Part shown: positions 6,050-53,113 of the stretch, in pieces
Layout: each line of letters starts with the position of its first letter
How positions within the stretch are numbered: the first letter of the stretch is position 1
NCBI GenBank assembly: GCA_902628365.1
Contig: CACOMW010000002.1
Span: 5,298 to 69,297 of the forward strand
Direction: 5' to 3'
Length of the DNA stretch: 64,000 bases
DNA from: an uncultured Marinoscillum sp.
GTDB taxonomy: Bacteria > Bacteroidota > Bacteroidia > Cytophagales > MED-G16
Program-made: the position numbers and the translations under genes
Notes under the pieces: generated by a model
What the model was told of the DNA's origin: nothing
The model's database searches: none
The model's input: only the letters and a program-made list of their open reading frames with translations

Positions 6050-6089
6050 ATTAGTATAATTACATATAGTTTTTTAATATATATCATAT

Positions 6090-6767: not shown

Positions 6768-6771
6768 TTTT

Positions 6772-7641: not shown

Positions 7642-7648
7642 AATTATT

Positions 7649-10795: not shown

Positions 10796-10804
10796 AACAG
10801 GGCA

Positions 10805-11863: not shown

Positions 11864-11915
11864 AATTTATAATTTAAACTTTTTTTAGAAGAAATTTGTA
11901 AAACAATTTAATCTA

Positions 11916-12554
11916 ATGTTAGAAATAAAATCATTTACCTTCAATCCTTATCAGGAAAATACATATTTAATTTTTGATGATTCAAAAGAAGCTGTTGTTA
12001 TTGATCCTGGAAATTATGAAGCTTATGAAAATGAATTAATTTCAAAATTTATAGATGAAAATAAATTACAATTAAAAAAAATTATTTTGACTCATTGTCA
12101 TATAGATCATTGCTTAGGCAATAAGTATTTAAATGAAAAATATGGAGCTGAATTATTAATTCCTTTTGATGAGAGGGATTTATATAAAAATGTAGAAAAT
12201 ATTGCAACTTTATTTGGGTTTGCTAATTATTCGCATTTAGATGAAAATGAATATTTAAAAGAAAAGGATAAAATAGAGTTTGGGGATATTAAACTTGATG
12301 TCTTATTCTTACCTGGTCATAGTCCTGGTCATTTAGCTTTTTATTTTAAAAACGACAATGTATGTTTTAGTGGTGATGTTCTTTTTTACAATAGTATAGG
12401 AAGAACAGATTTACCAGGTGGTGATCATGACACTTTAATTAATAGTATTAAAAATAAGCTATTTTTACTTAATCCAAATACTATAATTTATCCTGGTCAT
12501 GGACAAAAAACAACTCTAAAAAATGAAATGAAAGATAATCCCTTTTTAATATGA
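11916..12554 (+). CDS. MBL-fold metallo-hydrolase (glyoxalase II-like)
   Basis: HxHxDH motif (THCHIDH), downstream PGHSPGH, and GRTDLPGGD. 212 aa. Confidence 0.85.
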   Translation: MLEIKSFTFNPYQENTYLIFDDSKEAVVIDPGNYEAYENELISKFIDENKLQLKKIILTHCHIDHCLGNKYLNEKYGAELLIPFDERDLYKNVENIATLFGFANYSHLDENEYLKEKDKIEFGDIKLDVLFLPGHSPGHLAFYFKNDNVCFSGDVLFYNSIGRTDLPGGDHDTLINSIKNKLFLLNPNTIIYPGHGQKTTLKNEMKDNPFLI

Positions 12555-13234
12555 AAATTATTTTTCCTAGTTTTTTTACAGTCCTTAATTTACTATCTGG
12601 ATTTTTAGGTGTCTTGTTTCTTATTAACAAAAATTATAATCTAATTCAGTATTGTATTTATTCTTCTCTTATTTTTGATTTTTTGGATGGGTTTATAGCA
12701 AGAAAATTAAATGCAACATCTAATTTTGGTAAACAACTTGATTCTTTTGCTGATTTAATATCTTTTGGTCTTTTGCCAAGTTTAATTTTGTATGATTGGT
12801 TTTTAACTAATTCTTCAACTGATATTTATAAATACTTCTCGGTTCTTATTTTATTGTTTTCTTCTTTTAGGCTATCAAAGTTCAACTTAGATAATAATCA
12901 AGAATTTATATTTTTGGGTATTCCTACACCATTAGTTGCTTTATTTTTTAATTCTTTAATTTTTAATTCTGGTTTTTATAATAATTTTCTTACATCTGAA
13001 ATATTACTTTTATTTATTACATTTTTTTCAATAATGATGATAGTCAATATTAAGTTTATTTCTTTAAAATTTAAAGACTACTCCTTTTTTAAAAATATTC
13101 ATATGTATATCTTATTACTAATCTCTTTATTTTTATTATTATATCTCAAATTAGATGCTTTCCCAATAATTGTGATTATTTACATTTTAATTTCATTAGT
13201 TTATTTTTTATTTGTTAAGAATGAAATGAATTAA
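12551..13234 (+). CDS. pssA: CDP-alcohol phosphatidyltransferase, probable phosphatidylserine synthase
   Basis: Exact CDP-alcohol phosphatidyltransferase motif DGx2ARx8Gx3Dx3D in DFLDGFIARKLNATSNFGKQLDSFAD. Polytopic membrane protein. 4-nt ATGA overlap with the upstream gene. Confidence 0.8.
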   Translation: MKIIFPSFFTVLNLLSGFLGVLFLINKNYNLIQYCIYSSLIFDFLDGFIARKLNATSNFGKQLDSFADLISFGLLPSLILYDWFLTNSSTDIYKYFSVLILLFSSFRLSKFNLDNNQEFIFLGIPTPLVALFFNSLIFNSGFYNNFLTSEILLLFITFFSIMMIVNIKFISLKFKDYSFFKNIHMYILLLISLFLLLYLKLDAFPIIVIIYILISLVYFLFVKNEMN

Positions 13235-13261
13235 AATAAGCTTTTAATTACAATTTATTCT

Positions 13262-16200: not shown

Positions 16201-16684
16201 TTTGAATGATTATTTCATTTCATTTAAAGATGACTTCAAAAGAGGGTCTGTTCGTTATCCTATTGAAAATTTAGATATTGGAAAACATAAACTCGAAATA
16301 AAAGTTTATGATACTTACAATAATATTGGTAATGAATCAGTTCTATTTATGGTTTCAAATGATTTAAAAATCAAAATTAATAATCTTATGAATTATCCTA
16401 ATCCTTTTTCAGAATCAACCTCATTTAGTTTTGAACATGACAGGGAAGAAGAGGACCTTGAGGTTTCTATTGAAATTATTAATTTAAATGGAAAAGTTAT
16501 TTACAAAAAATCTGAAATCATTGAAAATTCAAATAATCTTGTAAATGGGATTATTTGGAATGGAAAAAATTCAAATCAACAAATAGTTTCCGATGGAATA
16601 TATATATATAAATTGCATGTTAAAAGTTTATTTGACGGAGCCTATAATCAATCATATAAAAAAATGATAAAAAGAAAATTATAA
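13262..16684 (+). CDS. porU: PorU, type IX secretion C-terminal signal peptidase (peptidase C25/gingipain-like)
   Basis: 1,140 aa with a signal peptide and a C25-like core. The C-terminal T9SS sorting-domain-like tail runs NYPNPFSESTSFSF...GIYIYKLHV. porV follows immediately after a 1-nt gap. Confidence 0.78.
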   Translation: MILCYKKKKLLTRLKIIFFIIFFIIDIKDILSQESILSKGDWIRIGITENGVYKLDRSFFESYSSKIDIDRIVPSTIQIFGSGIIGPLTQNNDALSFTSPVEMKIDFVGNENNYFENNEYITFYANGPDKVSYDSLQKNIFYLNNVYSDTAFYLLTFNQKEGKRIESKASLENYSNVIDFSSETFIYESDINNILQSGREWVGELFSNGDSKNINIPSPNLYNNDVTIILSALSRSTDNSKFEISLNNNKVAELNLEKINEDLYGEKVIFSLDTFEIKINDLNNLNLSISYSGTSKSLAYLDYIILNYNSKLIFDSNQKVFNNLNEVASDKIQFNILSDIPNFKIWNITDPYLVINQLYDNDIGKSIFNINSNRFQEYIIFDENNLLIPASHQYAFSTNNQTRIRDILSVTNVDLLIITDDLFLFDAKRLANFRLSNDRLNTKVVTVDEIYLQFSSSTPDISSIRNYIKYLYEKSSKKLKYVLLFGDASYDYKNRIFNNTNYVPTYQSRNSTNNIYSYSSDDFFGFLDDDEGEWTENLLGDHDLDVGIGRIPVNNNVDSKLVIDKLIRYSSNNDFGRWKNDIYLIADDGDYNIHQINAEKHFDLVDSNNPQFNIKKIFIDYYKQELVGGVKKSIDGNIKLNEAIEQGSLIINYIGHGNEFLWAEERILDENSIEKWKNRSKIPLLVSATCEFGKFDNPLITSGGELMINKGDGGSIALFTTTRPVFSQTNFLLNDQFYKNVFKKQNNNFLRLGDIFRITKNNSLSGPINRNFSLLGDPSLTLNYPKLDIEINIPDSLSIDTLRALEKYSFNGEIINNGKKVENFNGEVFIDFFDKLSVKQTLGDESDPFSFKQWDKSIFRGSSSVNNGNFTFEFVVPKNIEYNFGKAKVTMYATDSLNQIDANGSNIEFNIGGTSKNFSLDKTPPEINIFLNDRTFKSEDNVSSNALLIIDLYDENGINIYNSDYSNNIVATLDDSINFILNDYFISFKDDFKRGSVRYPIENLDIGKHKLEIKVYDTYNNIGNESVLFMVSNDLKIKINNLMNYPNPFSESTSFSFEHDREEEDLEVSIEIINLNGKVIYKKSEIIENSNNLVNGIIWNGKNSNQQIVSDGIYIYKLHVKSLFDGAYNQSYKKMIKRKL

Positions 16685-16685
16685 G

Positions 16686-17915
16686 ATGAAATTATTTATC
16701 ATAAATTTATTTACAATATTTACTTTTTTTTCCCTAGGGCCATTCCATTTGTTTTCACAGGGTTCTTCTTCCATTTTATCTGGCCAAGATACAGCAAGAA
16801 GACCAATTATTACTGCCGTTCCTTTCCTTTTGATTTCACCAGATTCAAGAAGTTCTGCAATGGGCGAAACTGGTGTTGCTACATCCCCTGATATTAATTC
16901 TGCACATTGGAATAATGCTAAATTATCATTTTTAGAAAAAGATTATGGCTTTTCAGTATCTTATGTGCCTTGGCTTGGGAATATTGTTGATGATATGTCT
17001 ATTTCTTATTTATCAGGATTTTATAAGCTAGATGATATTCAGTCTTTCGGATTAAACTTAAAATATTTTGATTTAGGTGAGATTCAGCTCACTGACAACC
17101 AAGGGCTATCTCTGGGTATTGAAAATCCAAAAGAATTAAGTACTTCAATTACTTATTCTAGAAGACTAACAGAAAATATTGGAATAGGGAGTTCATTTAG
17201 ATATATATGGTCTAATTTATCAGGAAGTATATCTGGATATTCAGATGCAAAATCAGGATCTAGTTTTTCAGTTGATATTGGTTTTTATTATAAAAATGAT
17301 ATAACAATTAATGGAAAGGATGCAACAATTTCTTTTGGATCTCATATTTCAAATATTGGAGGTAAAATTACATATGGAAGTGTCTCAAATCTTGATTTTA
17401 TTCCAATTAATTTTAGAGTTGGTAGCTCATTAAAAACATATTTCGATCAGTACAATTCACTAACATTTGCTTTAGATTTTAACAAATTATTAGTTCCTTC
17501 TCCTCCAATTTATGTAATTGATGAACAAGGTGATTATGTTATTGATCCTATTACAAATAAACCAAAAATCTTAAAAGGAAAAGATCCAACCAGATCAGTA
17601 CTTAGTGGTATCTTTTCTTCTTTTTCTGATGCCCCAAATGGATTTAGAGAGGAGCTAAATGAAATTACTATATCTTCAGGATTAGAGTATTTATATAAAG
17701 ACCTTCTAGCTTTAAGAGTTGGTTATTTTCATGAAAATAATGATAAAGGAGCTAGAAAATTTATCACAATGGGAGCAGGATTGCTATATAATAACTTTTC
17801 TGTTGATTTTTCATATATTTCTACTATCGAACAAAATCATCCTTTAGCAGAAACAATGAGATTTTCAGTTGCATTTTTATTCAATAAATCAGATGAAGAA
17901 ATAAGTGATAATTAA
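16686..17915 (+). CDS. porV: PorV (LptO), type IX secretion outer-membrane shuttle protein
   Basis: 409-aa beta-barrel with a signal peptide. The conserved N-terminal segment is ITAVPFLLISPDSRSSAMGETGVATSPD. It sits in the canonical position directly after porU. Confidence 0.8.
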   Translation: MKLFIINLFTIFTFFSLGPFHLFSQGSSSILSGQDTARRPIITAVPFLLISPDSRSSAMGETGVATSPDINSAHWNNAKLSFLEKDYGFSVSYVPWLGNIVDDMSISYLSGFYKLDDIQSFGLNLKYFDLGEIQLTDNQGLSLGIENPKELSTSITYSRRLTENIGIGSSFRYIWSNLSGSISGYSDAKSGSSFSVDIGFYYKNDITINGKDATISFGSHISNIGGKITYGSVSNLDFIPINFRVGSSLKTYFDQYNSLTFALDFNKLLVPSPPIYVIDEQGDYVIDPITNKPKILKGKDPTRSVLSGIFSSFSDAPNGFREELNEITISSGLEYLYKDLLALRVGYFHENNDKGARKFITMGAGLLYNNFSVDFSYISTIEQNHPLAETMRFSVAFLFNKSDEEISDN

Positions 17916-17917
17916 GA

Positions 17918-18385
17918 TTAATTCTTTTTAACTAATACACCAATAGATTGTATTCCAATTAGATTTTTTTCTCTCATCTTTTGATAAATATGAATCGAGA
18001 AAGATGAGTTTTTTTTTAATGTAAGATTTTCAATTATTTTTTCATCTAAAATGAAAGTTTTACTAATACCAGAACCTAAGGGTTTTCCATTAATTTCATC
18101 AAAAAGAATCATCTCATTTAATTCTTTTTTTACAATAGTATCAATTGAATCTAAAATATTAAAATTATAGTAGAGGTTCTGATAAGGGTATTCAATGTCA
18201 TATTTTATTCTTAAAGAAACATTAGTAATATAATCAAGATCTTTTGTTGAAAAGTTAAAAATAGATGGGGTATTAGAGATCCATCCTCTTTGATCAAAAT
18301 CTTTGAATTTATCAATTAGTTTTTTCTCATTACAAGAAATCATTATAATTAAAAAAATTAGAATCTTAAATAAATTATTTACCAT
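17918..18385 (-). CDS. gldH: GldH-like gliding-motility/T9SS lipoprotein
   Basis: 155-aa lipoprotein (MISC lipobox). Its pattern matches my recollection of the GldH family: W...F.F, then YPYQNLY, then a C-terminal MRxxxLxGIxxIGVLVKK-like segment. No search was run. Confidence 0.6.
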   Translation of the reverse strand: MVNNLFKILIFLIIMISCNEKKLIDKFKDFDQRGWISNTPSIFNFSTKDLDYITNVSLRIKYDIEYPYQNLYYNFNILDSIDTIVKKELNEMILFDEINGKPLGSGISKTFILDEKIIENLTLKKNSSFSIHIYQKMREKNLIGIQSIGVLVKKN

Positions 18386-32866: not shown

Positions 32867-33589
32867 ATGAATATGTTCAATTTTATTTTAGGAGTAAGTT
32901 TACAACCAGGTGATTTCACTGGTTTTACTTTCTTCATTGGATCTGTTTCAATGTTAGCTGCTACTGTGTTTTTTTTAGTACAACATGGTCAAGTTGACAA
33001 GAAATTTAAAGATTCTATGCTTGTTGCTGCATTGATTACTGGTATTGCAGCTGTACATTATTACTATATGAGAGATCAGTGGGCTGCTGGACTAGGTTCG
33101 CCAACTGAATTGAGATATATAGATTGGATTCTTACCGTTCCTCTAATGGTAGTAGAGTTTGCTTTACTTACTGGTGTAGGAATGAGAAAATTATTCTGGG
33201 CTTCAGTTGTTATGTTAGTAACAGGATATTTTGGTGAATCTGGAGTAACTGGCATGCTAGACGCTCAAATTTGGGGTGCTATAGCTGGTCTTGCTTATTT
33301 TTGGATGGCTTATGAAGTCGGTTGTTTAACCATTTTTGGTGGACCTAGTGGTGAAGTTGGTAATGCTCTTGCTAAAGCTGATGGTAAAATACCAGCTGCT
33401 GGAAGAATGTTACAGTGGTTTGTATTAGTTGGATGGTCTATTTATCCTTTAGGATATATGTTAGGAACTGACGGATGGTATAGCGGAATGCTTGCTGGCC
33501 TTCCATTAAATATGGATATTGTATATAATATTGGTGATGCAATCAATAAGATTGGATTCGGTATGGCTGTTTGGTCTGCTGCAAAATAA
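32867..33589 (+). CDS. Proteorhodopsin, light-driven proton pump (DTE motif, Met at tuning site = green type)
   Basis: Seven TM helices. AAVHYYYM (conserved His). RYIDWILTVPLMVVEF carries the acceptor Asp, Thr, Met at the position-105 equivalent and the donor Glu. IYPLGYM. Schiff-base Lys in NIGDAINKIGFG. Confidence 0.95.
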   Translation: MNMFNFILGVSLQPGDFTGFTFFIGSVSMLAATVFFLVQHGQVDKKFKDSMLVAALITGIAAVHYYYMRDQWAAGLGSPTELRYIDWILTVPLMVVEFALLTGVGMRKLFWASVVMLVTGYFGESGVTGMLDAQIWGAIAGLAYFWMAYEVGCLTIFGGPSGEVGNALAKADGKIPAAGRMLQWFVLVGWSIYPLGYMLGTDGWYSGMLAGLPLNMDIVYNIGDAINKIGFGMAVWSAAK

Positions 33590-33610
33590 TATTATATTCC
33601 TATTAATTAA

Positions 33611-33640
33611 AAAGGTGAGGTTTTCCTCACCTTTTTTTTT
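33611..33640 (+). terminator. Rho-independent terminator after proteorhodopsin
   Basis: Perfect 10-bp stem AAAGGTGAGG / CCTCACCTTT with a TTTT loop, running into a T-tract to 33640. It starts 22 nt after the PR stop codon. Confidence 0.75.
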
Positions 33641-33652
33641 GTGTTTGATAAT

Positions 33653-34528
33653 ATGATTCCCTCTAAAGACTATTTAATTCCTTCAAAGATATTTGGTTTA
33701 ATTGTTTCATTATCAATTATTTTTTTTGATGTTGAAAGTTCTTATTCAATCTTATTTTTTTTATTTATTATGTTAACAATAGGAATACCACACGGATCTA
33801 TAGATCATTTAATTGCTTTTATAAATCCTAAGACAAGGAGATTTCAAAATAAATTTTATTTTTTTATATCGTACATATCATTAATTTTTTTTAATATTTT
33901 ACTATGGATCATTTCCCCATATCTTGGGCTTTTTATTTTTTTAATAATTTCATGCTATCATTTTGGTGAAACTCAAGTATTAGGGTACACTACTACTGAT
34001 AATAAATTTTTAAGTTTTATCCTGGGCGCAAATATTCTATTATCTCTTTTTTTAAATAATATATTTGAGCTACAGGAGATATTATCTTCTCTCTCGTTTT
34101 TTAGCAGTATCGATTTAAGTGCTTTTGATAAGATATTTTTTTTATTGTTATCTATATCTATATTAATGATTTCAATTATTTATTCTGATGTTAAAAGAAA
34201 AATTCTTTTGTATGCGGAAATGAGTATTATGTACTTAATATTTTTTCATACTGATCTTCTAATATCATTTTCTTTATTTTTTGGATTTTCTCATTCTCTA
34301 CCTATGCTATTGATGGAATTTAAAGAAATGAAGGAAAAGAATTTTATAAAGTTTTATTTTAAGACTTTACCTTTTACTTTTTTATCAATTCTATTTGGAA
34401 TAATAATTTATTACTTTAATTCTGATCTACTTACAACAGATAATCTAATTTTATTCATATTTATAATTATATCAAGCTTAACTTTACCTCATGTTTTTAT
34501 TATGAAAGATTTTATACAAAACAAATAA
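33653..34528 (+). CDS. blh: Brp/Blh family beta-carotene 15,15'-dioxygenase (retinal synthesis)
   Basis: Polytopic membrane protein next to PR with four spaced conserved His segments (IPHGSIDH, CYHFGETQ, FSHSLPM, LPHVF), as in the Brp/Blh family. The start is either ATG 33653 or GTG 33641, directly abutting the terminator T-tract. Confidence 0.85.
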   Translation: MIPSKDYLIPSKIFGLIVSLSIIFFDVESSYSILFFLFIMLTIGIPHGSIDHLIAFINPKTRRFQNKFYFFISYISLIFFNILLWIISPYLGLFIFLIISCYHFGETQVLGYTTTDNKFLSFILGANILLSLFLNNIFELQEILSSLSFFSSIDLSAFDKIFFLLLSISILMISIIYSDVKRKILLYAEMSIMYLIFFHTDLLISFSLFFGFSHSLPMLLMEFKEMKEKNFIKFYFKTLPFTFLSILFGIIIYYFNSDLLTTDNLILFIFIIISSLTLPHVFIMKDFIQNK

Positions 34529-34573
34529 CTCATTAACAACGTAATTATGTTTTTTAATTTTTATTAAGACATT

Positions 34574-35443
34574 TTGAATAAAGTAGATAAGATATTTAAT
34601 TTTATATTTTCTGATATAGTTCAGAGAAAGTTTGAAAAATTTATTTTATTTCTAGCAACAGCTGGATTTATAATTCATTTATTATTGATTTATTTAAATA
34701 GGTATGAGATTATCAGTTTTACTTTTAATGACAGTCTCTTATTAAATCCAATTTCAGCATTATATACTCCATTCTCATTTATTCTTGTATATGAAGCCTT
34801 TTTATTAATTTATTTTATACCAAACTCATTTACTGTTTCAGTAGTTAAAGGGTATGAAATTATTTCTCTGATCTTGATAAGAAAAATTTTTAAAGACGTG
34901 CCTTTAGTAAATTTAGATACAAATTTTTTGTTAGATCCTTATTCCACACAATTGATATATGACTTACTCGGTATAATTATTATTTTCTTTTTGATCTATT
35001 TATTTAAGAAAAACGCAGGGATTAAGAAAAAGAAAACAATCGGTAAAAGACTAGAAAAGTTTATAATAAAGAAAAAAGCAATTTCAGTTCTTTTAGTTCC
35101 AACTTTGATTTTTTTAGTTTGCTATAGTTTTTATTTTTGGTTTAACGGTGTAGTTCTCTCAAATTCATTTACTCAAGATTTAAATTATCTATTTTTTATC
35201 GATTTTTTTACAATTTTAATTCTTGTTGATGTTTTTATCTTATTAATCTCATTTAGATATACAGAGAGATATTCTCAACTTATAAGAAATACTGGTTTTA
35301 TTATATCAACCATTTTGTTAAGGTTATCATTTGGAGTTTCAGGATTAAAAAGTATTATTTTATTAATTTCAGGAATACTATTTGGCTTGTTAATTCTTTT
35401 GATATATAAGAAAATGGAAAAAGTTAAATATTTAGATAATTAG
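34574..35443 (+). CDS. Unknown polytopic membrane protein, ~8 TM, two homologous 4-TM halves
   Basis: Long ORF with strong TM periodicity. It is closed upstream by TAA 34565..34567 and has no Met before residue 281, so TTG 34574 is the only plausible start. The internal repeat is seen by eye. No family recognised. Confidence 0.6.
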   Translation: MNKVDKIFNFIFSDIVQRKFEKFILFLATAGFIIHLLLIYLNRYEIISFTFNDSLLLNPISALYTPFSFILVYEAFLLIYFIPNSFTVSVVKGYEIISLILIRKIFKDVPLVNLDTNFLLDPYSTQLIYDLLGIIIIFFLIYLFKKNAGIKKKKTIGKRLEKFIIKKKAISVLLVPTLIFLVCYSFYFWFNGVVLSNSFTQDLNYLFFIDFFTILILVDVFILLISFRYTERYSQLIRNTGFIISTILLRLSFGVSGLKSIILLISGILFGLLILLIYKKMEKVKYLDN

Positions 35444-43958: not shown

Positions 43959-44294
43959 TTATTTTTTTCTAGCTTCAATAAAACTTTTTACAAAATAAAT
44001 CATAGCATACAAAGAAGAAGATAACATAATAATTATTCTAACTGCTGCTTCATTTCGTCCATCCTCTAATGCACTGAGTAAAGGCATGATGTTTGCAAAT
44101 GATAATAATGTAACAAGAACTGCAATATGAGCAATTACTTTATTACTATTTTTTATTCCATTATTTAAAAAAATAAGTACTACTCCTATGGCAACAGGTA
44201 TTAATGATGTAGGAGAACCAGAAATAAAATAACCCCATCCACCTATAACAATTAAAACTATTGCATTTAATAAACTAGCTACATGTGCTTTCAT
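43959..44294 (-). CDS. Small 4-TM membrane protein, unknown function
   Basis: 111 aa with four hydrophobic helices. 2-nt gap to the downstream lipoprotein gene. Confidence 0.5.
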   Translation of the reverse strand: MKAHVASLLNAIVLIVIGGWGYFISGSPTSLIPVAIGVVLIFLNNGIKNSNKVIAHIAVLVTLLSFANIMPLLSALEDGRNEAAVRIIIMLSSSLYAMIYFVKSFIEARKK

Positions 44295-44345: not shown

Positions 44346-45653
44346 TTAATATTTTTTTAAACCCAAATCTATATTGAGCTGACCTTTTTTCTTAAGCCAC
44401 ATTGAACGATAAATTCCTTTTTTATCATGAAGTTCGGATTGTCTTTCAGGGTTAAAAACCCAATTTCTAGTATTGTTTCCGACTCCTGCAATATACATCC
44501 AATTACACCAGTTACTTGTTACATCATAATCTATCAAATGCTTTTCAAAGAATGATGCACCCCATACCCAATTTAGATCTAAATTGTTAATTAAATAACT
44601 TGCTACATTTTGTCTGCCTCTGTTACTCATAAAGCCAGTCTCTTTAAGTTCTTTCATATTGGCATCAATAAACTCTTGACCAGTTTCTCCTCTTTTCCAT
44701 TTTTCAAATAATTTTAAGTCATTATTAAAATTTTTAGAAAATATATTACCATTAATGCCTTCTTTTAAAAAAATCTTATTTTTAGCTTTTAGATATACAT
44801 ACCTAAAAAACTCTCTCCATAAAAGTTCAAAAATAAGCCAGTAAGTAGATGAATTTTTTTTAATCTCTTTTTCATATCTTTTCACCTCTTGATAAATCAT
44901 TACAGGTGAAATACATCCAAGGCATAGATACGCTGAAAACTTAGAAGAGTATTCAGTTCCTATAAGGCCGTTTCTTGTTTCTTTGTATTTTTCTATATTT
45001 TTTGATTTCCAAAGATAATTTTTAAGCCTATTAAGACCGTTATTTTCACCTCCTACAAATGGATAAGAAGAATTTAGATTAGTATCTATCATCAAATATT
45101 CTAATTGAATTGTAAAAGGGGAGAGATAATCATTTTTTGATTGAATAGTAGGATCAAATTTTTCAACGTCTCTGATGACAACTAACTTTTCAACCTTCTT
45201 TCTAAAGTGAGTAAATATAAGAGGTAATTCTTCAACTTGATATGGTAATTTTTTTGATTCAAATAGATTTTGATCTTCAAATAAATTTAAATTGAAATCA
45301 TTATCATAAAGTATTTTTTCCTCCCTTTCTTCATATGTACCAACCTCTTTTGTTCCATATACCGTAGTACTATATTTTTTTAAGTCATCGAAGATTTCAA
45401 GAATATTGCCTTCAAGAATCATGAGTTTAATATTGATTTTATTCAGGTCTTTTTTTAAGTTTAATATGGATTCAATTAAAAATTTTTCTCTGAATTTACC
45501 AATCTTTTCAGTATCAGAATTAATTGGATTGAATATTTTATAATCCATTATATATACAAAAAGAAGCTCATCATTTTCTTTTATTGCGCTATTTAATGAA
45601 GGGTTATCATGTATTCTTAAGTTTTTTCTAAACCAATATATTGCCTTTTTCAT
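44346..45653 (-). CDS. Cryptochrome DASH (photolyase/cryptochrome family)
   Basis: N-terminal IYWFRKNLRIHDNPSL and FAD-binding C-terminal blocks (TGFMSNRGRQNVASYL, WGASFFEKHLIDYDVTSNWCNWMY). The ~435-aa size is typical of CRY-DASH. Confidence 0.85.
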   Translation of the reverse strand: MKKAIYWFRKNLRIHDNPSLNSAIKENDELLFVYIMDYKIFNPINSDTEKIGKFREKFLIESILNLKKDLNKINIKLMILEGNILEIFDDLKKYSTTVYGTKEVGTYEEREEKILYDNDFNLNLFEDQNLFESKKLPYQVEELPLIFTHFRKKVEKLVVIRDVEKFDPTIQSKNDYLSPFTIQLEYLMIDTNLNSSYPFVGGENNGLNRLKNYLWKSKNIEKYKETRNGLIGTEYSSKFSAYLCLGCISPVMIYQEVKRYEKEIKKNSSTYWLIFELLWREFFRYVYLKAKNKIFLKEGINGNIFSKNFNNDLKLFEKWKRGETGQEFIDANMKELKETGFMSNRGRQNVASYLINNLDLNWVWGASFFEKHLIDYDVTSNWCNWMYIAGVGNNTRNWVFNPERQSELHDKKGIYRSMWLKKKGQLNIDLGLKKY

Positions 45654-45654
45654 A

Positions 45655-47127
45655 TTATAAATTATTTAAAAAACTCTTTGCAGTTATATTCAAATTATTT
45701 TTCTTATTTGTATCCATTTTATCATAAGAATTTACAAGCATTCTCATTCTAGGATTTCTTATAAAAAACTCTTTTTGATTTTTAATAAAATTCCAAAATA
45801 GAGAATCCCATATTACACACCAATCTCCTTTTTTATAGTCACTCATTTTAAGAATATAACTACTACCGCTTATATATGGTTTTGTTGACATCAACCCCCC
45901 ATCTGCGAATTGACTCATTCCATAAACATTTGGTACCATCACCCAATCATAAGAATCTATAAATAGTTCCATAAACCATTTATAAACCTCATCAGGATCA
46001 AATTCACATAGAAGCATGAAATTACCTAGAATCATAAGTCTTTCAATATGATGGGTATAAGCACTGTTTATCACTTTATTTATACTTTCATCAACTGGAT
46101 CTATCCCTGTTTTACCATTGTAAAAAGATGACGGTATTTTTCTTTTGAAACCCCAATAGTTTTTTGTTCTTTCATAGCTTCCTTTGACTGTATAAATTCC
46201 TCTAATGAATTCTCTCCAACCAATTATTTGTCTAATAAACCCTTCACATGAATTGATAGGTATTTTATTTATTTTATAAAATTTTATTGTTTCATTAATT
46301 ATATATTTTGGAGATAAGAGCCCAACATTAATCAATGGAGATAATAAACTATGGTTTAATATGGATTCATCTTTTAATATAGCATCTTCATACGGACCGA
46401 ATTCTTTAAATCTTACTTTTAAAAACTCATGAAACCATTTTTTTGCAGATTTAAAATTATTAGGGTAAATAATTTTGGAGTTAATCGATCCTAAATTATT
46501 ATTAAAATGGATTGTCACATATCTGACTGCCTCAGCTTGAATTTCATCTGTTTTAGGATATAAAATATTAGGTGTTTTTTTATTCTTAGGATATTTTTCT
46601 CTGTTTTCATTATCATAAGTCCATTTCCCACCAGCTGGATCGTTATTATCAATTAATATATTAAGGTTTTTTCTTTGATTTTTATAAAAGGATGTTTGAA
46701 AAAATTTTACTTTTTCATTTTTAAAAAATGTTTTTAAATCTTCCTTTGTATTGATAAATGATGGATTGTCATAAAAAATAATTTTTATACTTCTTTTTTG
46801 ACATTCTTTTTTTAATCTTTTTTCAATTAAAAAATCATCTGGATCAATTGTATGAATAGTTTCTATCTCTTTTGAAAGGTTTCTAATAAAATTTTTTATT
46901 TCAGAACTTTTATCTTTAGATTCTATATATCTAACATCATAACCTATTTTGATAAGATAATTTTCATAATGTTTCATAGTTGATCTATGAAAAATTAATT
47001 TTTGTTTATGAAAGTTAAATTGTTTAAAAAATAAGTACTCCTCAATTAGATAAATTGGGAATTCTTTTTTCAAAAACTGATTGTTTTCATGAAGTTGGTT
47101 TGGTAGAATAATTGATATTTCTTTCAT
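45655..47127 (-). CDS. Photolyase-related CPF protein (COG3046 / FeS-BCP-CryPro-related)
   Basis: ILPNQL N-terminus, CEGFIRQIIGWREFIRG, HHIERLMILGNF, NVYGMSQFADGG...KPYISGSSYILKMSDY. These blocks are characteristic of the deoxyribodipyrimidine photolyase-related family. Confidence 0.8.
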   Translation of the reverse strand: MKEISIILPNQLHENNQFLKKEFPIYLIEEYLFFKQFNFHKQKLIFHRSTMKHYENYLIKIGYDVRYIESKDKSSEIKNFIRNLSKEIETIHTIDPDDFLIEKRLKKECQKRSIKIIFYDNPSFINTKEDLKTFFKNEKVKFFQTSFYKNQRKNLNILIDNNDPAGGKWTYDNENREKYPKNKKTPNILYPKTDEIQAEAVRYVTIHFNNNLGSINSKIIYPNNFKSAKKWFHEFLKVRFKEFGPYEDAILKDESILNHSLLSPLINVGLLSPKYIINETIKFYKINKIPINSCEGFIRQIIGWREFIRGIYTVKGSYERTKNYWGFKRKIPSSFYNGKTGIDPVDESINKVINSAYTHHIERLMILGNFMLLCEFDPDEVYKWFMELFIDSYDWVMVPNVYGMSQFADGGLMSTKPYISGSSYILKMSDYKKGDWCVIWDSLFWNFIKNQKEFFIRNPRMRMLVNSYDKMDTNKKNNLNITAKSFLNNL

Positions 47128-47281
47128 TTTTATTTCTTCTGCATTTTTCTGAACAATATTTAACTTCTTTCCAGCAGTTTCTCCATTTTTTTCTATAAGA
47201 AAATGGTTTAAGGCAAACTATACATATTTTGAAGTCAAGTTTTTTTTTACCATTTTTTGGGTAATTCATTTCTTTTTGCAT
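47087..47281 (-). CDS. DUF2256 zinc-ribbon protein
   Basis: KICIVCLKPFSYRKKWRNCWKEVKYCSEKCRRNK carries CxxC...CxxxC and the RKKW...W..VKYCS..CR pattern of DUF2256. It overlaps both neighbours in different frames. An alternative start is Met 47269. Confidence 0.75.
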   Translation of the reverse strand: MQKEMNYPKNGKKKLDFKICIVCLKPFSYRKKWRNCWKEVKYCSEKCRRNKNERNINYSTKPTS

Positions 47282-47876
47282 AAGGATACTTTGCTATTTT
47301 TTTTGTTGAGTAATAACTGTCAAGTCCAGATATACATACTGTATCTAATTCTTCAAATTTTAAAGATCCATCTTCTTCAATTAACTCATTTCTAGTTTTA
47401 ATTTTTGTTACCCTACCAACTATTAAAATTGTATTATTAGAATTAATAGTAATCTCTTCTACCAATTTTAATCCAATCTTCACCTTGCTTTCTTTAACAA
47501 ATGGAGCATAGAAATTATCGATATACATTTCTTCTAATGAACATTTTTCAAATTCTGATTCTTCATCTTTAAATTTAGCAGAAGTGTAATGAGCTTTTTT
47601 TATATTGTCTTTCGATATATGATTTATAGTAAAATATTTTGTGTCTATAATATTTTTGTAGGTATGTCTTGGTACGGTATTTGGTCTGGTTACAATACCG
47701 ATAAGTGCAGGATTGGATCCAAGATGTATTACAGAAGAAAATATAGCTAAATTAGTTACTCCATTTTTTGATTTGGTGCCAATCAAATTAGCTGGTTTGT
47801 AACCTGTAATGCTATTGATAAGATTTAATCTAAAAACTTTATCTAATGATTTTATAGACTCTTCTGAGTAGGTCAC
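47247..47876 (-). CDS. Flavin reductase-like (FMN-binding split-barrel) protein
   Basis: ANLIGTKSKNGVTNLAIFSSVIHLGSNPALIGIVTRP resembles the flavin-reductase-like domain core. 209 aa. Confidence 0.62.
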   Translation of the reverse strand: MTYSEESIKSLDKVFRLNLINSITGYKPANLIGTKSKNGVTNLAIFSSVIHLGSNPALIGIVTRPNTVPRHTYKNIIDTKYFTINHISKDNIKKAHYTSAKFKDEESEFEKCSLEEMYIDNFYAPFVKESKVKIGLKLVEEITINSNNTILIVGRVTKIKTRNELIEEDGSLKFEELDTVCISGLDSYYSTKKIAKYPYAKRNELPKKW

Positions 47877-47878
47877 AA

Positions 47879-48565
47879 TTATATTTTTAATGTAGACATA
47901 CCTGAATCAACCCGCATAATTTGGCCAGTTATTTTATTACTTTCTTTTGATATCAAAAAATTTGCTACAGCTGCAACATCATCAGCTTCACATATTTTTT
48001 TAAGTGGGTGACTATTAGAAATATTTTCTTCTATTTTTTCATTTCTTAAAATATTTTTTGCCAACTCAGTTTTGGTAATAGTTGGAGCAATACAATTTAC
48101 ACGAACAGTAGGTGCAAATTCAGCTGCTAATGATTTTGTAATACCCTCAATTGCAGCCTTTGCTGAGGATATAGATGCGTGAAAAGCCATACCTTTAGTT
48201 ACTGCAACAGTACTGAATAGTACAATAGATGGATTTGATCCCTTTTTGAGTACATTTAAATACTTTTGTATTGACCGGACCGCACCTATAACATTAATTT
48301 CAAAATCATTTTTAAAATCTTCTTCTTTTAATTGAAGAAATGGTTTTAAAGTTATTGATCCTGGGCAGTAAACCAATGAATCAATAGAATCAATGTCTGG
48401 TAATTCATCTTTAAGAATATCAAGATTATACTCCTTGTAATTTTCATTGTTTACAGCAAGAGAATTTCTTGAAATATTTATACAATAATTACCAGTATTC
48501 AATTGATAATTTAGGATACTATTTCCTATACCTCTACTTCCACCTATTATTAATATATTTCTCAT
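47879..48565 (-). CDS. Short-chain dehydrogenase/reductase family protein (atypical active site)
   Basis: Cofactor motif IIGGSRGIG and the SDR-type segment RVNCIAPTITKT. The expected YxxxK reads ISSAK by eye. Confidence 0.8.
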   Translation of the reverse strand: MRNILIIGGSRGIGNSILNYQLNTGNYCINISRNSLAVNNENYKEYNLDILKDELPDIDSIDSLVYCPGSITLKPFLQLKEEDFKNDFEINVIGAVRSIQKYLNVLKKGSNPSIVLFSTVAVTKGMAFHASISSAKAAIEGITKSLAAEFAPTVRVNCIAPTITKTELAKNILRNEKIEENISNSHPLKKICEADDVAAVANFLISKESNKITGQIMRVDSGMSTLKI

Positions 48566-49038
48566 TTTTTAAATAATTTATTTAATTGTTTAGTTCTGAA
48601 TTCAAAAATATTTTTTAATTGATATTTCACAATTTTACCTCCAAAAAATCTACCGATAAAACCAAGTGGTAATTTAAATTTTACAACATCATAAGCCCAT
48701 AGTTTTTTATTCTTTTCTTCAAATTTATGTTCATGCTCCCAAAAACTAAAAGGACCAGATATTTGTTTATCTATAAATCCAAATGGTTTTTTAACATAAG
48801 TAATTTTTGTTGTCCAACCAACTCTGGTAAATGGAAATGGAGAAACTCTATATTTTATTATTAAGCCTTCGTACATAGTATTAAAATCTGTCAGAATTTC
48901 AAAATTCATATGCTTTGGAGTGATCTTAAATAAATTTTTTGGGTTCGAAAAAAATTGCCAACTCTTTGCTAAACTTGTATTAAGTTTTTGTTTTGATTTT
49001 AAATAGTAAAATCCAGATTTATATTTTATATTTATCAT
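48562..49038 (-). CDS. SRPBCC (START/Bet v1-like) superfamily protein
   Basis: 158 aa. The size and alternating beta/long C-terminal helix pattern are typical of polyketide-cyclase/dehydrase-like lipid-binding proteins. Weak, by-eye call. Confidence 0.5.
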   Translation of the reverse strand: MINIKYKSGFYYLKSKQKLNTSLAKSWQFFSNPKNLFKITPKHMNFEILTDFNTMYEGLIIKYRVSPFPFTRVGWTTKITYVKKPFGFIDKQISGPFSFWEHEHKFEEKNKKLWAYDVVKFKLPLGFIGRFFGGKIVKYQLKNIFEFRTKQLNKLFKK

Positions 49039-49109
49039 GAATCTTTATACTCTTTTTAAAAGATTTGGTTTACGTTTTTTAAATATTTTTTCTAATAAAT
49101 CTAAACGCT

Positions 49110-50060
49110 ATGATTAGAACAGTTTTGTTTTTGATTATTACACTTTTTGGTGTAGTTTCTTTATCATTTTATTATGACATTTTTAATGTCACTTTTTCTT
49201 TAGAACAGGAAGAAGCATTGTATGCAATGATTAAACTTTATTTATTTTCTGTAGCATATTGTTTTATTGTAAGTGAGCTAGCAGTAAATTATAGTCAAGT
49301 CGATAAATTTTGGAGTACAATACCAATAGCTTATGCTTGGTATTTTGCTTATGCAAGTGGAATGAATGATAGACTTCTGTTAATGGCTGTTTTAGTAACT
49401 GCTTGGGGAGTGAGATTAACATATAATTTCGGAAGAAAAGGTGGTTTCAGTATATATTTTTGGAAAGGAGAGGAAGATTATAGATGGGTAGAAGTTCGTA
49501 AAAGTATGGCTTTTTTGAAGGGTAGATTTACCTGGGGATTATTTAATTTATTTTTTATATGTTTTTATCAATTAGGATTAATTTTTTTATTCACTTTACC
49601 TATTTTAGCTGCATGGCAAGGAATGGATCAACCATTGTATTGGGCTGACTATCTTATTGCTCTATTAATGTTATTCGCCATTGTAATTGAGACAATAGCA
49701 GATGAACAACAATATAATTTTCAAACAGAGAAATATCGAAGAATAAATAATGGTGAAAAACTAGATGGAGACTATAAACTAGGATTTAGAACTACTGGAT
49801 TATGGGCTTTATCAAGACATCCAAATTTTGCAGCTGAGCAACTTATATGGATACTATTTTATTGTTTTAGTGTATCCGCTACTGGTCTTTGGTTCAATTG
49901 GTCCGTAATAGGATCTATACTGTTAGTTGTATTATTTAAAAATAGTGCAGATTTTAGCGAAGGCATCAGCTCGCGAAAATATCCAATGTATAAAAAATAC
50001 ATTGAAAATGTTCCAATGTTTTTACCGCTTTTTGGACTAAACACAAAGTGGAAGGACTAA
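49110..50060 (+). CDS. DUF1295 membrane protein (steroid 5-alpha-reductase / ICMT-like superfamily)
   Basis: Polytopic. The C-terminal signature GLWALSRHPNFAAEQLIW is the RHPNY-type motif of DUF1295. Confidence 0.75.
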   Translation: MIRTVLFLIITLFGVVSLSFYYDIFNVTFSLEQEEALYAMIKLYLFSVAYCFIVSELAVNYSQVDKFWSTIPIAYAWYFAYASGMNDRLLLMAVLVTAWGVRLTYNFGRKGGFSIYFWKGEEDYRWVEVRKSMAFLKGRFTWGLFNLFFICFYQLGLIFLFTLPILAAWQGMDQPLYWADYLIALLMLFAIVIETIADEQQYNFQTEKYRRINNGEKLDGDYKLGFRTTGLWALSRHPNFAAEQLIWILFYCFSVSATGLWFNWSVIGSILLVVLFKNSADFSEGISSRKYPMYKKYIENVPMFLPLFGLNTKWKD

Positions 50061-50063
50061 ATA

Positions 50064-50585
50064 TTATTTTCTAAATTCTTTATAAATCATGCTGGGTTGA
50101 ATGCTCTTATTTTTTTGATATTTATCACTTACATAGGTTTTGTAATCTCCATTTAAACTGTGATAATAAATTTGGCATATTTCGATTTCAGGATATATTT
50201 TAATTGGTTGAACACAAAAAATCTCTAAAGTCCAATAGCCTTCAAATCCAACGTCTCCAAATCCAGCGGTTATATGTACAAATAACCCAAGTCTACCAAT
50301 AGAAGATCTTCCTTCAAGCATGGGAACAAGATTTTGAGTTTTGGTATGCTCTTTTGTCCTTCCTAAGTAAAGTTTATTTGGCTTGAGGATTAAACCTTCA
50401 TTTGGAATAATTAGACTTGAAGTTTTCAATTCTTTTTTCATATCAAAAACTTCGTCTTCATAATACATTAACTTTTTATGAAGTCTTAAATTATAACTAT
50501 TAGGGTTAAGTTGATCTTCATTGAAAGGATCAATATGAATATCACTACCTAATCTTTTTTTTATTTCTAGTCCAGATAATATCAT
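50064..50585 (-). CDS. dcd: dCTP deaminase
   Basis: MILSGLEI N-terminus, GRSSIGRLGL, GFEGYWTLE. 173 aa. Confidence 0.85.
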   Translation of the reverse strand: MILSGLEIKKRLGSDIHIDPFNEDQLNPNSYNLRLHKKLMYYEDEVFDMKKELKTSSLIIPNEGLILKPNKLYLGRTKEHTKTQNLVPMLEGRSSIGRLGLFVHITAGFGDVGFEGYWTLEIFCVQPIKIYPEIEICQIYYHSLNGDYKTYVSDKYQKNKSIQPSMIYKEFRK

Positions 50586-50590
50586 TATTA

Positions 50591-51610
50591 TTATATTAAT
50601 TTTTGAAGTAAAGCCTTGGTTGCAATTATGCCTTCGTGTGGATTCAGATAATTTCCTTTGCCTCCAAATAGATTTAGCATAGCTCCTTCATATTCTATAG
50701 CAATATAACCTTCATATGAAGACTGTTTTACAATAGTAATCATTTTTTCAAAATCTGTATTTATATCATTTCCTTTCTCATCAAATTCATGCGATTTAGC
50801 ACTAATGCCTTTTGCAAATGGTAGGAGTTCCTCTACACCTTCATATTTGTCATATTGTTGATCACATGGTTTTGTTAGATTAGATAAATCCAACCGTTCT
50901 CTTTTCATACAAAACCCATGATTTCCGAAATCAGGAAGAGTACCTACAAATTCACTATTTACCTCTTTTATAACTTTAACCAACCATTTTGCATTTCCAG
51001 TTAATCCACCATGATTTTCAACTATTGTGCTTACGCCATATTTTGAACCAAAATCTGCTAATATTGATATGCTTTCAGCACTTGTTTTTAATATTTCTTC
51101 CTCTGATCCTACATCAGATTTTAAATTTACTCGAATAGAATGGCAGTTTATTTTTGATGCAACTTCAATCCAATGTTTATGAAATTCTATAGCCTTATTT
51201 CTTTCTTCTTTATTTAAGGAAGCTAGACTAGGTCCTGGCTCCATAGTTTGAATGTTAATATCATCTACAAGTATAATGGTATTTGAAACACCAAGATCTT
51301 TACTTTTTTGATTAAGATCATCAAGGAAATTTTTATTTTTTTCTTGATTCATAAATGCTATAGACCAATATTCTGCACCGTTTAATCCGTATGTATTTTT
51401 TACAATTTCTGGAAAATCTATTATATTAAATTTTCCAGCCATTAATAATGGAGCAAAAGAATAAGCTTGAAGTGATATTTTAAGATTGGAACTTTTTATT
51501 TTTTCTATACATGAAGAGAAAATAAATGGAGATGGAATCGTAGAAGTAAGAGATAATCCGAAAGAATATTTTAAACTATTTTTTATAAATTTTCTTCTAT
51601 GATTTTCCAT
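50591..51610 (-). CDS. Tat-exported sugar phosphate isomerase/epimerase (xylose-isomerase-like TIM barrel)
   Basis: Twin-arginine-like leader MENHRRKFIKNSL. TIM-barrel family blocks (IRVNL, IVENHGG, IAIEYEG). Confidence 0.72.
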   Translation of the reverse strand: MENHRRKFIKNSLKYSFGLSLTSTIPSPFIFSSCIEKIKSSNLKISLQAYSFAPLLMAGKFNIIDFPEIVKNTYGLNGAEYWSIAFMNQEKNKNFLDDLNQKSKDLGVSNTIILVDDINIQTMEPGPSLASLNKEERNKAIEFHKHWIEVASKINCHSIRVNLKSDVGSEEEILKTSAESISILADFGSKYGVSTIVENHGGLTGNAKWLVKVIKEVNSEFVGTLPDFGNHGFCMKRERLDLSNLTKPCDQQYDKYEGVEELLPFAKGISAKSHEFDEKGNDINTDFEKMITIVKQSSYEGYIAIEYEGAMLNLFGGKGNYLNPHEGIIATKALLQKLI

Positions 51611-51683
51611 TCTATTTGCTTTTATTAGATCTGATAAAATTATTACTTTTTTAACTTATATTACAACATAATTTAATCTGATT

Positions 51684-52682
51684 ATGAAAAACAAATCTAT
51701 AATTTTTACAAAAAGACCAAAGGACTTTCCTACAAATGAAAATTTTTCAGTTCAAGATGATATTGTTCCAGTTCTTAATGATAATCAAATACTCCTCAAG
51801 ACAGTTTATGTATCTGTAGATCCATATTTAAGGGGAAGAATGAATAATGTAAAATCTTATATTCCACCTTTTGAAGTAGGGGAGCCTATGAAGTCTACTA
51901 TAGTTGCAGAGGTTATTGAATCAAAAAATAAAAATTATTCTGTTGGATCTCACTTATATGGCATGCTAGATTGGAAAACTTTTCAAGTTTCTGATGGAAC
52001 TGGATTATTTCCTATCCCCAAAGATCTTGCGCCTCTTTCATCTTACCTTGGAGTGCTAGGAGTAACAGGCTTAACTGCATACTTTGGATTGTTAGAGATA
52101 GGTAAACCTAAAGAAAACGAAACATTATTGGTTTCAGGAGCTGCTGGAGCTGTTGGTATTACTGTTTCACAAATAGGAAAAATAAAAGGATGCAGAGTGG
52201 TCGGTATAGCTGGTTCAGATGAAAAAGTTGATAGGCTAAAAAATAAATTTGGATTAGATGCAGCAATAAATTATAAAAACAATAAAAATCTTTTAAATGA
52301 ACTAAAAACTGCTTGTCCAAATGGAGTTGATGTATATTTTGATAATGTTGGCGGAGAAGTATCTGATACAGTTTTTTACCTTACAAATAATTTTTGTAGG
52401 ATTCCTGTATGCGGTGCTATATCTCAATACAATCAACCAACTCTTCCAGTTGGACCAAGAAATAATCCTTTTATTATTAGTAGAAGAATAAAAATGCAAG
52501 GTTTTATTGTATTCGATTATTCAGATAAATATTTAGAAGCACAAATGCAGTTGGCAAGTTGGATGAAAGAAGGAAAAGTAACTTTAGAAGAAACCATTAT
52601 AGAAGGATTTGAAAATATTCCAGATGCTTTTCTTGGATTATTTAATGGAAAAAATTTCGGAAAAATGATTGTTAAAATTTAA
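51684..52682 (+). CDS. NADP-dependent oxidoreductase, MDR family (alkenal/one reductase, YncB/CurA-like)
   Basis: VSGAAGAVG cofactor motif, YLGVLGVTGLTAYFGL, and the C-terminal GKNFGKMIVKI ending typical of the LTB4-dehydrogenase-like subgroup. Confidence 0.85.
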   Translation: MKNKSIIFTKRPKDFPTNENFSVQDDIVPVLNDNQILLKTVYVSVDPYLRGRMNNVKSYIPPFEVGEPMKSTIVAEVIESKNKNYSVGSHLYGMLDWKTFQVSDGTGLFPIPKDLAPLSSYLGVLGVTGLTAYFGLLEIGKPKENETLLVSGAAGAVGITVSQIGKIKGCRVVGIAGSDEKVDRLKNKFGLDAAINYKNNKNLLNELKTACPNGVDVYFDNVGGEVSDTVFYLTNNFCRIPVCGAISQYNQPTLPVGPRNNPFIISRRIKMQGFIVFDYSDKYLEAQMQLASWMKEGKVTLEETIIEGFENIPDAFLGLFNGKNFGKMIVKI

Positions 52683-52693
52683 ATTTGAATATT

Positions 52694-53113
52694 ATGAAAA
52701 GAAAAATTAACGCAATATGGAAAGGAGATGGGGCTGATGGAACTGGGGTATTAACTGCACAAAGTGGTGCATTTAATAATATGCCTTATAGTTTTAAAAC
52801 GAGATTTAAAAATGATGATGGTACTTTAGGAACGAATCCTGAAGAACTTATTGCTGCAGCCCATGCTGGATGTTTCAATATGAAATTGAGCTTTGTATTA
52901 AATGAGTCTGACTATAATCCGGAAGAATTAAATACAGATGCAGTTTTAACTTTTGAAGATGGAAAAGTAATTTCTATAGAATTAAATTTAAAAGCTAAAG
53001 TCCCTAATATAGATGAAGAAAAATTTCAAGAATTAGCAGAAGAGGCTAAAGAAAATTGTCCTATTTCTGGCGCATTAAATTGTGATATTATTTTGAAAGC
53101 GACTTTAATTTAA
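52694..53113 (+). CDS. osmC: OsmC family peroxiredoxin
   Basis: Two conserved Cys contexts, AAHAGCF and NCPISGAL. About 140 aa. The ORF opens at TTG 52685 and the likely start is ATG 52694. Confidence 0.85.
   Translation: MKRKINAIWKGDGADGTGVLTAQSGAFNNMPYSFKTRFKNDDGTLGTNPEELIAAAHAGCFNMKLSFVLNESDYNPEELNTDAVLTFEDGKVISIELNLKAKVPNIDEEKFQELAEEAKENCPISGALNCDIILKATLI

Follow-up and report, generated by a model that had tools for sequence, protein, structure and literature searches.

A compact photolyase gene cluster in an uncultured Marinoscillum sp. and the linkage of DUF2256 and flavin reductase-like genes to photolyase genes across phyla

Gene organization of the locus

The DNA analyzed here, referred to as the window, is a stretch of 64,000 nucleotides from an uncultured Marinoscillum sp. 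(GenBank assembly GCA_902628365.1, contig CACOMW010000002.1, positions 5,298 to 69,297 of the forward strand). It carries six closely packed minus-strand genes encoding two proteins of the cryptochrome/photolyase family (CPF), a DUF2256 protein, a flavin reductase-like protein (FlavRed), a short-chain dehydrogenase/reductase (SDR), and an SRPBCC protein. Photolyases are textbook single-protein repair enzymes; nevertheless, genes for DUF2256 and for flavin reductase were found to be linked to photolyase genes across several phyla. The features of the locus are as follows, in window coordinates and in the order of transcription for the six genes.

48562-49038, minus strand: SRPBCC protein, 158 aa; first gene; helix-grip, Bet v 1/START-like small-ligand binder
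47879-48565, minus strand: SDR, 228 aa; classical short-chain dehydrogenase/reductase (Pfam)
47247-47876, minus strand: FlavRed, 209 aa; GTG start; split-barrel flavin reductase-like protein (Pfam)
47087-47281, minus strand: DUF2256, 64 aa; basic four-Cys zinc ribbon that overlaps the genes on both sides (Pfam)
45655-47127, minus strand: DPRP-type CPF protein of the prokaryotic (6-4)-photolyase type, 490 aa (Pfam DPRP and PDB matches)
44346-45653, minus strand: CRY-DASH, 435 aa (TIGR02765)
49110-50060, plus strand: DUF1295 membrane protein, 316 aa; divergent neighbor (Pfam)
49039-49109, no strand: divergent intergenic region, 71 nt; presumed promoters of the operon and of DUF1295
43959-44294, minus strand: membrane-like open reading frame (ORF), 111 aa; hydrophobic sequence, 51 nt 3' of CRY-DASH

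Calculated from the ORF coordinates, the spacers are -4 nt between SRPBCC and SDR, +2 nt between SDR and FlavRed, and +1 nt between the DPRP and CRY-DASH genes. DUF2256 overlaps FlavRed by 35 nt (23 nt from the second ATG) and the DPRP gene by 41 nt, so that the two unusually long overlaps of the locus both lie at this small gene. The coordinates, all of the spacers, and the 71-nt gap to DUF1295 match exactly those given in a preliminary description of this DNA, which had been made from the sequence alone. Its seven family labels were also confirmed. Matches above the Pfam cut-offs were obtained for DNA_photolyase and FAD_binding_7, DPRP, DUF2256, Flavin_Reduct, adh_short, and DUF1295, CRY-DASH was identified by TIGR02765, and SRPBCC was recognized by a structure model and Foldseek. 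The proteins that it had called fused are encoded by separate ORFs.

The window has a G + C content of about 27%, and coding sequence makes up about 96% of it. Between genes on the same strand, the median spacer is 7 nt, and 20 of 34 such spacers measure 9 nt or less. Because spacing of this kind is the norm in the genome, it cannot carry the obligate coupling that had been read from it.

Linkage of the genes across species

The linkage sample contained one genome per species and was obtained with an alignment of the 490-aa protein as query. It comprised 80 loci with 10-kb flanks, the best-scoring subset of over 600, with a bias towards Bacteroidota. The loci came from Flavobacteriales, Cytophagales, Chitinophagales, Saprospiraceae, Ignavibacteria, Balneolaceae, Acidobacteriota (Pyrinomonadaceae), a gammaproteobacterium of the Marinicellaceae, and a Bdellovibrio-like metagenome-assembled genome. 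Linked genes were counted by tblastn and ORF clustering, where an SDR orthologue was defined by at least 40% identity and a CRY-DASH orthologue by about 40% or more. The counts were as follows.

DUF2256: 52 of 80 loci
Another CPF gene: 34 of 80 loci
Flavin reductase: 26 of 80 loci
SDR orthologue: 25 of 80 loci
SRPBCC: 14 of 80 loci
CRY-DASH orthologue: 9 of 80 loci

Nearly all of the linked genes lie on the strand of the photolyase gene. The 10-kb flanks would contain a given single-copy gene by chance in less than 1% of 3-Mb genomes, that is, in less than one locus in 80. Linkage outside this genome, which the preliminary description had proposed as a test, is conserved. The combinations of genes differ from locus to locus: DUF2256 alone accompanies the photolyase gene in 26 loci, SDR and SRPBCC occur without the others in five, and all five companions are present in only four. 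Together with the genome-wide tight spacing, this pattern of separable sub-modules argues against the proposal that the six genes are obligately coupled into a single functional module. The exact six-gene order, together with DUF1295, a dCTP deaminase gene, and other neighbors, was found only in three metagenomic contigs (L081, L082, and L083), in which the photolyase is 86% or 71% identical to that of the window.

Larger clusters are present in three Flavobacteriaceae loci (L005, L022, and L036; approximately positions 6000-18300 in each), which also carry FlavRed, DUF2256, SDR, and SRPBCC. Their gene order is TetR-like gene, ABC1 kinase, FlavRed, NAD-binding/DUF2867 protein, DUF2256, CRY-DASH, (6-4)-type CPF, another CPF, 141-aa protein, DUF2805, GTP cyclohydrolase I, 74-aa protein, SDR, glutathione peroxidase, SRPBCC, and a further CPF. 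These clusters contain a third and a fourth CPF gene, one of which is of a short photolyase-like type; a short gene of this type, with the FAD domain only, occurs in 35 of the 80 loci. In these three loci, DUF2256 is followed by CRY-DASH, DPRP, and CPF genes, whereas in the window the DPRP gene precedes CRY-DASH and the six genes are contiguous. The 64-kb window lacks all of the additional genes, namely those for the TetR-like protein, ABC1 kinase, the NAD-binding/DUF2867 protein, DUF2805, GTP cyclohydrolase I, and glutathione peroxidase and the third and fourth CPF genes, and the locus can therefore be regarded as a reduced version of the Flavobacteriaceae clusters.

Two further genes were seen next to CPF genes in other loci. 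In a Zobellia locus (L029), an unannotated 165-aa ORF at 11501-11998 lies directly 3' of the (6-4)-type CPF gene, and on a Mesorhizobium plasmid (L092), an annotated CIA30-family protein is encoded at 7543-8133 between an SDR and a CPF gene. From its sequence, we suspect that the Zobellia ORF may be CIA30-like, which would make it another companion gene shared across phyla.

DUF2256 and the flavin reductase-like protein

The 64-aa protein matched Pfam DUF2256 at 63 bits, a family that has been placed in the TRASH clan (PMC4047054). DUF2256 is very basic, has four cysteines, and is a stand-alone small protein in 1448 representative clusters. A search for fusions with a CPF protein or a flavin reductase found none in the 150 best of these 1448 clusters, and the longer DUF2256 matches among them are probably read-through calls. 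A word-index search with the 64-aa query gave nine matches. A search of the literature gave only three papers in which DUF2256 is mentioned, and its function is addressed in neither of the two listed.

In 36 cases DUF2256 lies directly 5' of the photolyase gene, and in 31 of these its stop overlaps the photolyase start, as a rule by 4 nt. Another nine loci have DUF2256 ahead of CRY-DASH in the same overlapping arrangement. The association extends beyond these two classes: on a Rhizobium plasmid, a PhrB-type gene for an Fe-S-containing protein is followed by DUF2256, and in Salinivibrio DUF2256 overlaps the gene of a different photolyase. The conserved coupling to whichever CPF gene follows suggests that DUF2256 may be a stoichiometric partner, binding either DNA or the enzyme.

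The idea that DUF2256 acts in trans as a stand-in for a lost [4Fe-4S] cluster was considered and rejected, since it also follows the Rhizobium PhrB-type gene, whose product has all four cysteines, and overlaps the Salinivibrio photolyase gene.

A DUF2256 ORF is also present in L081 (7889-8080) and in L082 and L083 (7985-8122) but is absent from the public gene calls; it is hidden there because the photolyase was called from an upstream in-frame ATG, giving 504 or 519 aa instead of 490. A 113-aa protein (P0291) combines DUF2256 and DUF2805/TIGR03643, either as a genuine fusion or because of a read-through call. These are the two small families most often found beside photolyase genes.

FlavRed matched PDB entry 3fge over its full length with an E value of 1e-58. 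This structural-genomics entry, named "putative flavin reductase with split barrel domain", carries no functional assignment, and the link of the family to photolyases was seen from gene neighborhoods alone. In 14 of 20 loci, FlavRed ends immediately 5' of DUF2256, and in Vibrio pelagius it follows a different photolyase gene.

The two photolyase family proteins

The 490-aa protein matched PF04244 (DPRP) at 180 bits. Its best matches in the PDB were PhrB (4dja), CryB (3zxs), and the Vibrio cholerae 6-4 photolyase (7ykn), with E values of about 1e-76, and the alignment with PhrB covers residues 20-489, indicating full-length homology. With these members of the FeS-BCP/CryPro group it shares the N-terminal DPRP domain, the pair His365/His366, W390, Y424, and two conserved Asp residues (PhrB numbering). 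Of these positions, H366, W390, Y424, D179, and D254 are invariant among the 80 relatives, and H365 is kept in 73.

The protein differs from the FeS-BCP group in the residues of the [4Fe-4S] cluster. Three of the four cluster cysteines (PhrB C350, C438, C441, and C454) are absent: Pro occupies the position of C350, and a 10-residue deletion removes the loop with the CxxC pair C438/C441, in the window protein as well as in 80 of 80 relatives. The residue at C454 differs among members of the clade. The lone nearby Cys of the window protein is placed one residue before C454 in an 82-sequence alignment and at C454 in pairwise and five-sequence alignments; in the five-sequence alignment, a Rhizobium homologue keeps all four cysteines. 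With this pattern, which all 80 relatives share, the protein is not a strict FeS-BCP. The photoreduction chain W342/W390/Y391/Y395 is likewise not intact, with W342Y, Y391F, and Y395F in the window protein, and Glu403 is replaced by Met. Y391F is found in 80 of 80 relatives and E403M in 79 of 80. The significance given to the individual residues that are kept, the His365/His366 pair among them, reportedly comes from mutagenesis studies of PhrB.

An FeS-less subgroup M, including the characterized Prochlorococcus enzyme PromaPL, has been described, and its electron-transfer chain is interrupted (PMC9178010). According to the same study, the photoreduction chain is interrupted in the non-ABG subgroups, most members of which have a Met near N5; an intact chain is typical of subgroups A, B, and G. 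The window protein, which likewise lacks the Fe-S cysteines, fits subgroup M as judged by its residues. Taken together, the alignments indicate that it is a relative of the prokaryotic (6-4) photolyases without the [4Fe-4S] cysteines and with the catalytic histidines kept.

The 435-aa protein scored 440.7 bits against TIGR02765 (cut-off, 317.05) and has the two-domain photolyase architecture of PF00875 and PF03441. The closest solved structures were Synechocystis 1np7 (E value, 2e-101) and the Cry-DASH entries 2j4d and 2ijg (E value, 3e-93), with Arabidopsis Cry-DASH among the best. From these matches the protein is identified as a true DASH-type cryptochrome, and it is predicted to be of the photolyase type that acts on cyclobutane pyrimidine dimers (CPDs) in single-stranded DNA.

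The SDR and SRPBCC proteins

The SDR matched Pfam adh_short and adh_short_C2. No NCBIfam model reached its cut-off; the 25 best matches were generic reductases and did not include any pterin or folate reductase. Assignment to a named enzyme, such as FabG or a pterin or folate reductase, was therefore dropped, as all NCBIfam models remained below cut-off. Of five plasmid matches of the SDR, only the best, with 39-45% identity, lies beside a PhrB-type CPF gene, in Mesorhizobium. In L082, the SDR gene (6643-7330) is split into ORFs of 51 and 187 aa; it is whole in the near-identical L083, and the split is a frameshift or an assembly error.

The SRPBCC protein gave a sub-threshold Pfam match to Polyketide_cyc (E value, 0.0065). 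Its AlphaFold2 model, built with 20 homologues, has a pLDDT of 90.2 and shows seven strands and a C-terminal helix (127-155) in a helix-grip fold. A Foldseek search with the model returned 274 PDB matches with E values up to 0.001, the foremost being PR-10, PYL, and TTHA0849; structural matches to PR-10, PYL, TTHA0849, and START proteins had TM scores of 0.6-0.7. The helix-grip model and its matches to Bet v 1, PYL, and START structures show that the SRPBCC label is right. SRPBCC orthologues usually adjoin an SDR or a CPF gene.

The divergent region and the flanks of the locus

The 71-nt region between SRPBCC and DUF1295 is nearly identical in L081, the relative whose photolyase is 86% identical, and diverged in L082, with a 71% identical photolyase. 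No operator motif was established in it, and none common to it and the region upstream of the proteorhodopsin gene was visible by eye. A sigma-70 scan gave 70 sites against 63 expected, which is not above chance, and its model does not cover Bacteroidota promoters. Scans with Rfam and for tRNAs found nothing in the locus. Among the window ORFs of at least 100 aa, no transcription-factor family was detected, nor was a sigma E-ChrR pair or a LitR/MerR family protein.

The preliminary description had counted DUF1295 as part of the gene set. The gene is syntenic only in the three near relatives L081-L083 and lies within 10 kb in none of the 80 other loci, so it was removed from the conserved members of the cluster, and its membership of the module is doubtful.

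The minus-strand run continues 3' of CRY-DASH with the 111-aa ORF, followed by a gene for a putative peptidase and by unrelated nucleoside genes that encode a nucleoside hydrolase and a PfkB kinase. The 111-aa ORF at 43959-44294 matched no Pfam or NCBIfam family, and it is kept at the same place in L082 and L083 with 78% identity. A terminator scan detected none on the minus strand, including the interval between CRY-DASH and this ORF, which could be a seventh gene of the operon.

On the other side, the flank at 50064-53113 encodes a dCTP deaminase, a xylose isomerase-like TIM-barrel protein, a zinc alcohol dehydrogenase of the alkenal/quinone-reductase type, and OsmC. All four genes are found in L081, and L082 and L083 have three of them, without the zinc alcohol dehydrogenase. 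Some of these genes could be part of an oxidative-stress neighborhood. The genes for proteorhodopsin and blh, at 32867-33589 and 33641-34528, are some 10 kb distant from the locus, as the preliminary description had noted. A 289-aa ORF without a family match stands beside them, and the trio spans 32867-35443. Genes of type IX secretion and gliding (SprA, 65-5281; PorV, 16686-17915; GldH, 17918-18385) are also present in the window, which is a segment of a streamlined Bacteroidota genome.

Comparison with known light-responsive systems

In Dokdonia sp. MED134, the genes MED134_10201 (CRY-DASH), 10206 (DPRP), and 10211 (photolyase/cryptochrome) have been reported as a predicted operon that is upregulated by light. 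The same two CPF families adjoin each other there, in a marine flavobacterium that also bears proteorhodopsin. Light induction, as reported for this orthologous operon, may by analogy apply to the cluster described here.

Similar gene sets are known from regulons of other bacteria. The core RpoE-ChrR regulon of Rhodobacter includes a photolyase gene and an SDR gene co-regulated with genes of unknown function. The light regulon of the class II LitR of Pseudomonas comprises phrB, an SDR gene, ufaM, folE, and a two-gene transcript that ends in cryB with a small gene upstream; folE, folM, and folX are light-induced along with cryB and phrB. The window contains CPF genes, an SDR gene, and DUF1295. 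It differs from both regulons in the absence of a sigma/anti-sigma pair, LitR/MerR, and the furan fatty acid genes for CFA synthase, DUF1365, and FAD-oxidoreductase.

Two plasmid clusters resemble the RpoE-ChrR core regulon and the Pseudomonas LitR regulon. The Mesorhizobium cluster that contains the SDR match and the PhrB-type gene also has genes for an FAD-oxidoreductase, DUF1365, CFA synthase, MsrPQ, a photolyase, and TspO, and an Acinetobacter plasmid carries a row of TIGR03643, DUF2256, lipocalin, desaturase, FAD-oxidoreductase, DUF1365, CFA synthase, and DUF1295 genes. The earlier suggestion that such sets travel together in light and singlet-oxygen regulons was thus broadly right. Overall, the proposal of a conserved, light-linked gene set was upheld, whereas that of an obligate six-gene unit with DUF1295 as a member was not.

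Proposed function and alternative explanations

We consider it probable that the locus is a light/UV-damage response operon of three co-transcribed sub-modules, and not one obligate pathway. The six genes would be transcribed together from the 71-nt divergent region. In the first sub-module, SRPBCC as a putative binder of hydrophobic ligands and SDR as a putative NAD(P)-dependent reductase would probably act on a lipid, quinone, isoprenoid, or pterin-type molecule prone to photo-oxidation. The second would be a translationally coupled trio of FlavRed, DUF2256, and the cluster-less (6-4) photolyase, in which the 490-aa enzyme would repair (6-4) photoproducts, DUF2256 may serve as a stoichiometric helper that binds DNA or the photolyase, and FlavRed may assist the flavin chemistry, most likely by reducing FAD or maintaining it in the reduced state. 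In the third, CRY-DASH is expected to repair cyclobutane dimers in single-stranded or unwound DNA. We read the two CPF enzymes as covering complementary lesions, of the (6-4) and the single-stranded-DNA CPD types. A role of FlavRed in keeping FAD reduced is attractive because the Tyr residues of the photoreduction chain are replaced by Phe throughout the clade.

Several observations weigh against this interpretation. The window yielded no identifiable promoter, operator, or regulator. The packing of the six genes is typical of the whole genome and alone is no proof of coupling, and relatives differ widely in gene order and in the set of genes present. In cyanobacterial SePhrB, the chain is interrupted in a similar way and Met399 is present, yet the enzyme photoreduces efficiently unaided (PMC9178010), which weakens the need for a reductase. 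The helpers are also not strictly bound to photolyases: in Pseudoalteromonas, FlavRed lies directly 3' of an annotated SDR gene without a CPF gene, and DUF2256 stands apart from any photolyase gene on Erwinia and Spirosoma plasmids.

Much of this would be expected if the genes were merely co-regulated, that is, if independent light and oxidative-stress genes had been squeezed together by streamlining without a shared pathway or protein partnership, and the accessory genes dealt with photo-oxidative damage to lipids and cofactors apart from DNA repair. We regard this as possible, although not likely. The 96% coding density and the median 7-nt spacer of the window, the variable order and separable sub-modules of the 80 loci, and the Pseudoalteromonas, Erwinia, and Spirosoma cases are all consistent with it, as are the stress genes close by (OsmC and the alkenal/quinone-reductase-type alcohol dehydrogenase) and the glutathione peroxidase, Msr, and ABC1 kinase genes in the clusters of relatives. 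However, the stop/start overlap of DUF2256 and CPF genes, seen across phyla in 31 of the 36 adjacent pairs, the position of DUF2256 before or after three different CPF classes, and that of FlavRed immediately 5' of DUF2256 in 14 of 20 loci indicate a linkage tighter than co-regulation alone requires.

It is improbable that the locus is instead a photoreceptor module, in which one or both CPF proteins would be blue-light sensors for proteorhodopsin, carotenoid, or stress genes, for example, with DUF2256 as a DNA-binding output and the redox proteins tuning the flavin signaling state. Such a role would agree with the regulation of photosynthesis and energy-metabolism genes reported for the FeS-BCP protein RsCryB, as cited in PMC9178010. 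The window also encodes no conventional transcription factor, the proteorhodopsin and blh genes are about 10 kb away, and DUF2256 is very basic, with one apparent fusion to DUF2805/TIGR03643, another small photolyase-linked protein. On the other hand, the repair-critical His-His pair and the other key residues of PhrB are kept in the clade, and characterized members of both CPF families repair DNA.

We are similarly doubtful that SDR, SRPBCC, and FlavRed make or deliver an antenna chromophore or a reduced pterin or flavin, such as a pterin or folate for CRY-DASH and a flavin or lumazine derivative for the (6-4) enzyme. The GTP cyclohydrolase I gene between DUF2805 and SDR in the larger Flavobacteriaceae clusters and the light induction of folE, folM, and folX with cryB and phrB in Pseudomonas point in this direction, and the antenna of the FeS-less subgroup M is not known (PMC9178010). 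Against this explanation, the SDR falls below every NCBIfam cut-off, and its 25 best matches do not include a pterin or folate reductase; folE and other pterin genes are absent from the window, and SRPBCC proteins bind many hydrophobic ligands.

A further proposal is that DUF2256 and the 3fge-type FlavRed are dedicated, undescribed partners of bacterial photolyases, produced in fixed proportion by translational coupling. FlavRed would then provide light-independent, NAD(P)H-driven reduction of FAD in a (6-4) enzyme from which the Fe-S cluster and the Tyr photoreduction chain have both been lost, with DUF2256 anchoring the complex to DNA or the enzyme. We consider this unlikely as it stands.

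The kind of cluster is already known, and this locus is a compact case of it; the point of note is the widespread and unstudied partnership of DUF2256 and FlavRed with photolyases. If the helpers are merely co-regulated stress genes, the locus would be an ordinary light-response operon. The window holds the cluster in a minimal and contiguous form, in marine Bacteroidota of an abundant, streamlined type that bear proteorhodopsin, and offers a clean template for the function of the helpers. If the helpers are dedicated partners, photoreactivation would be a multi-protein system and not a single-enzyme reaction.

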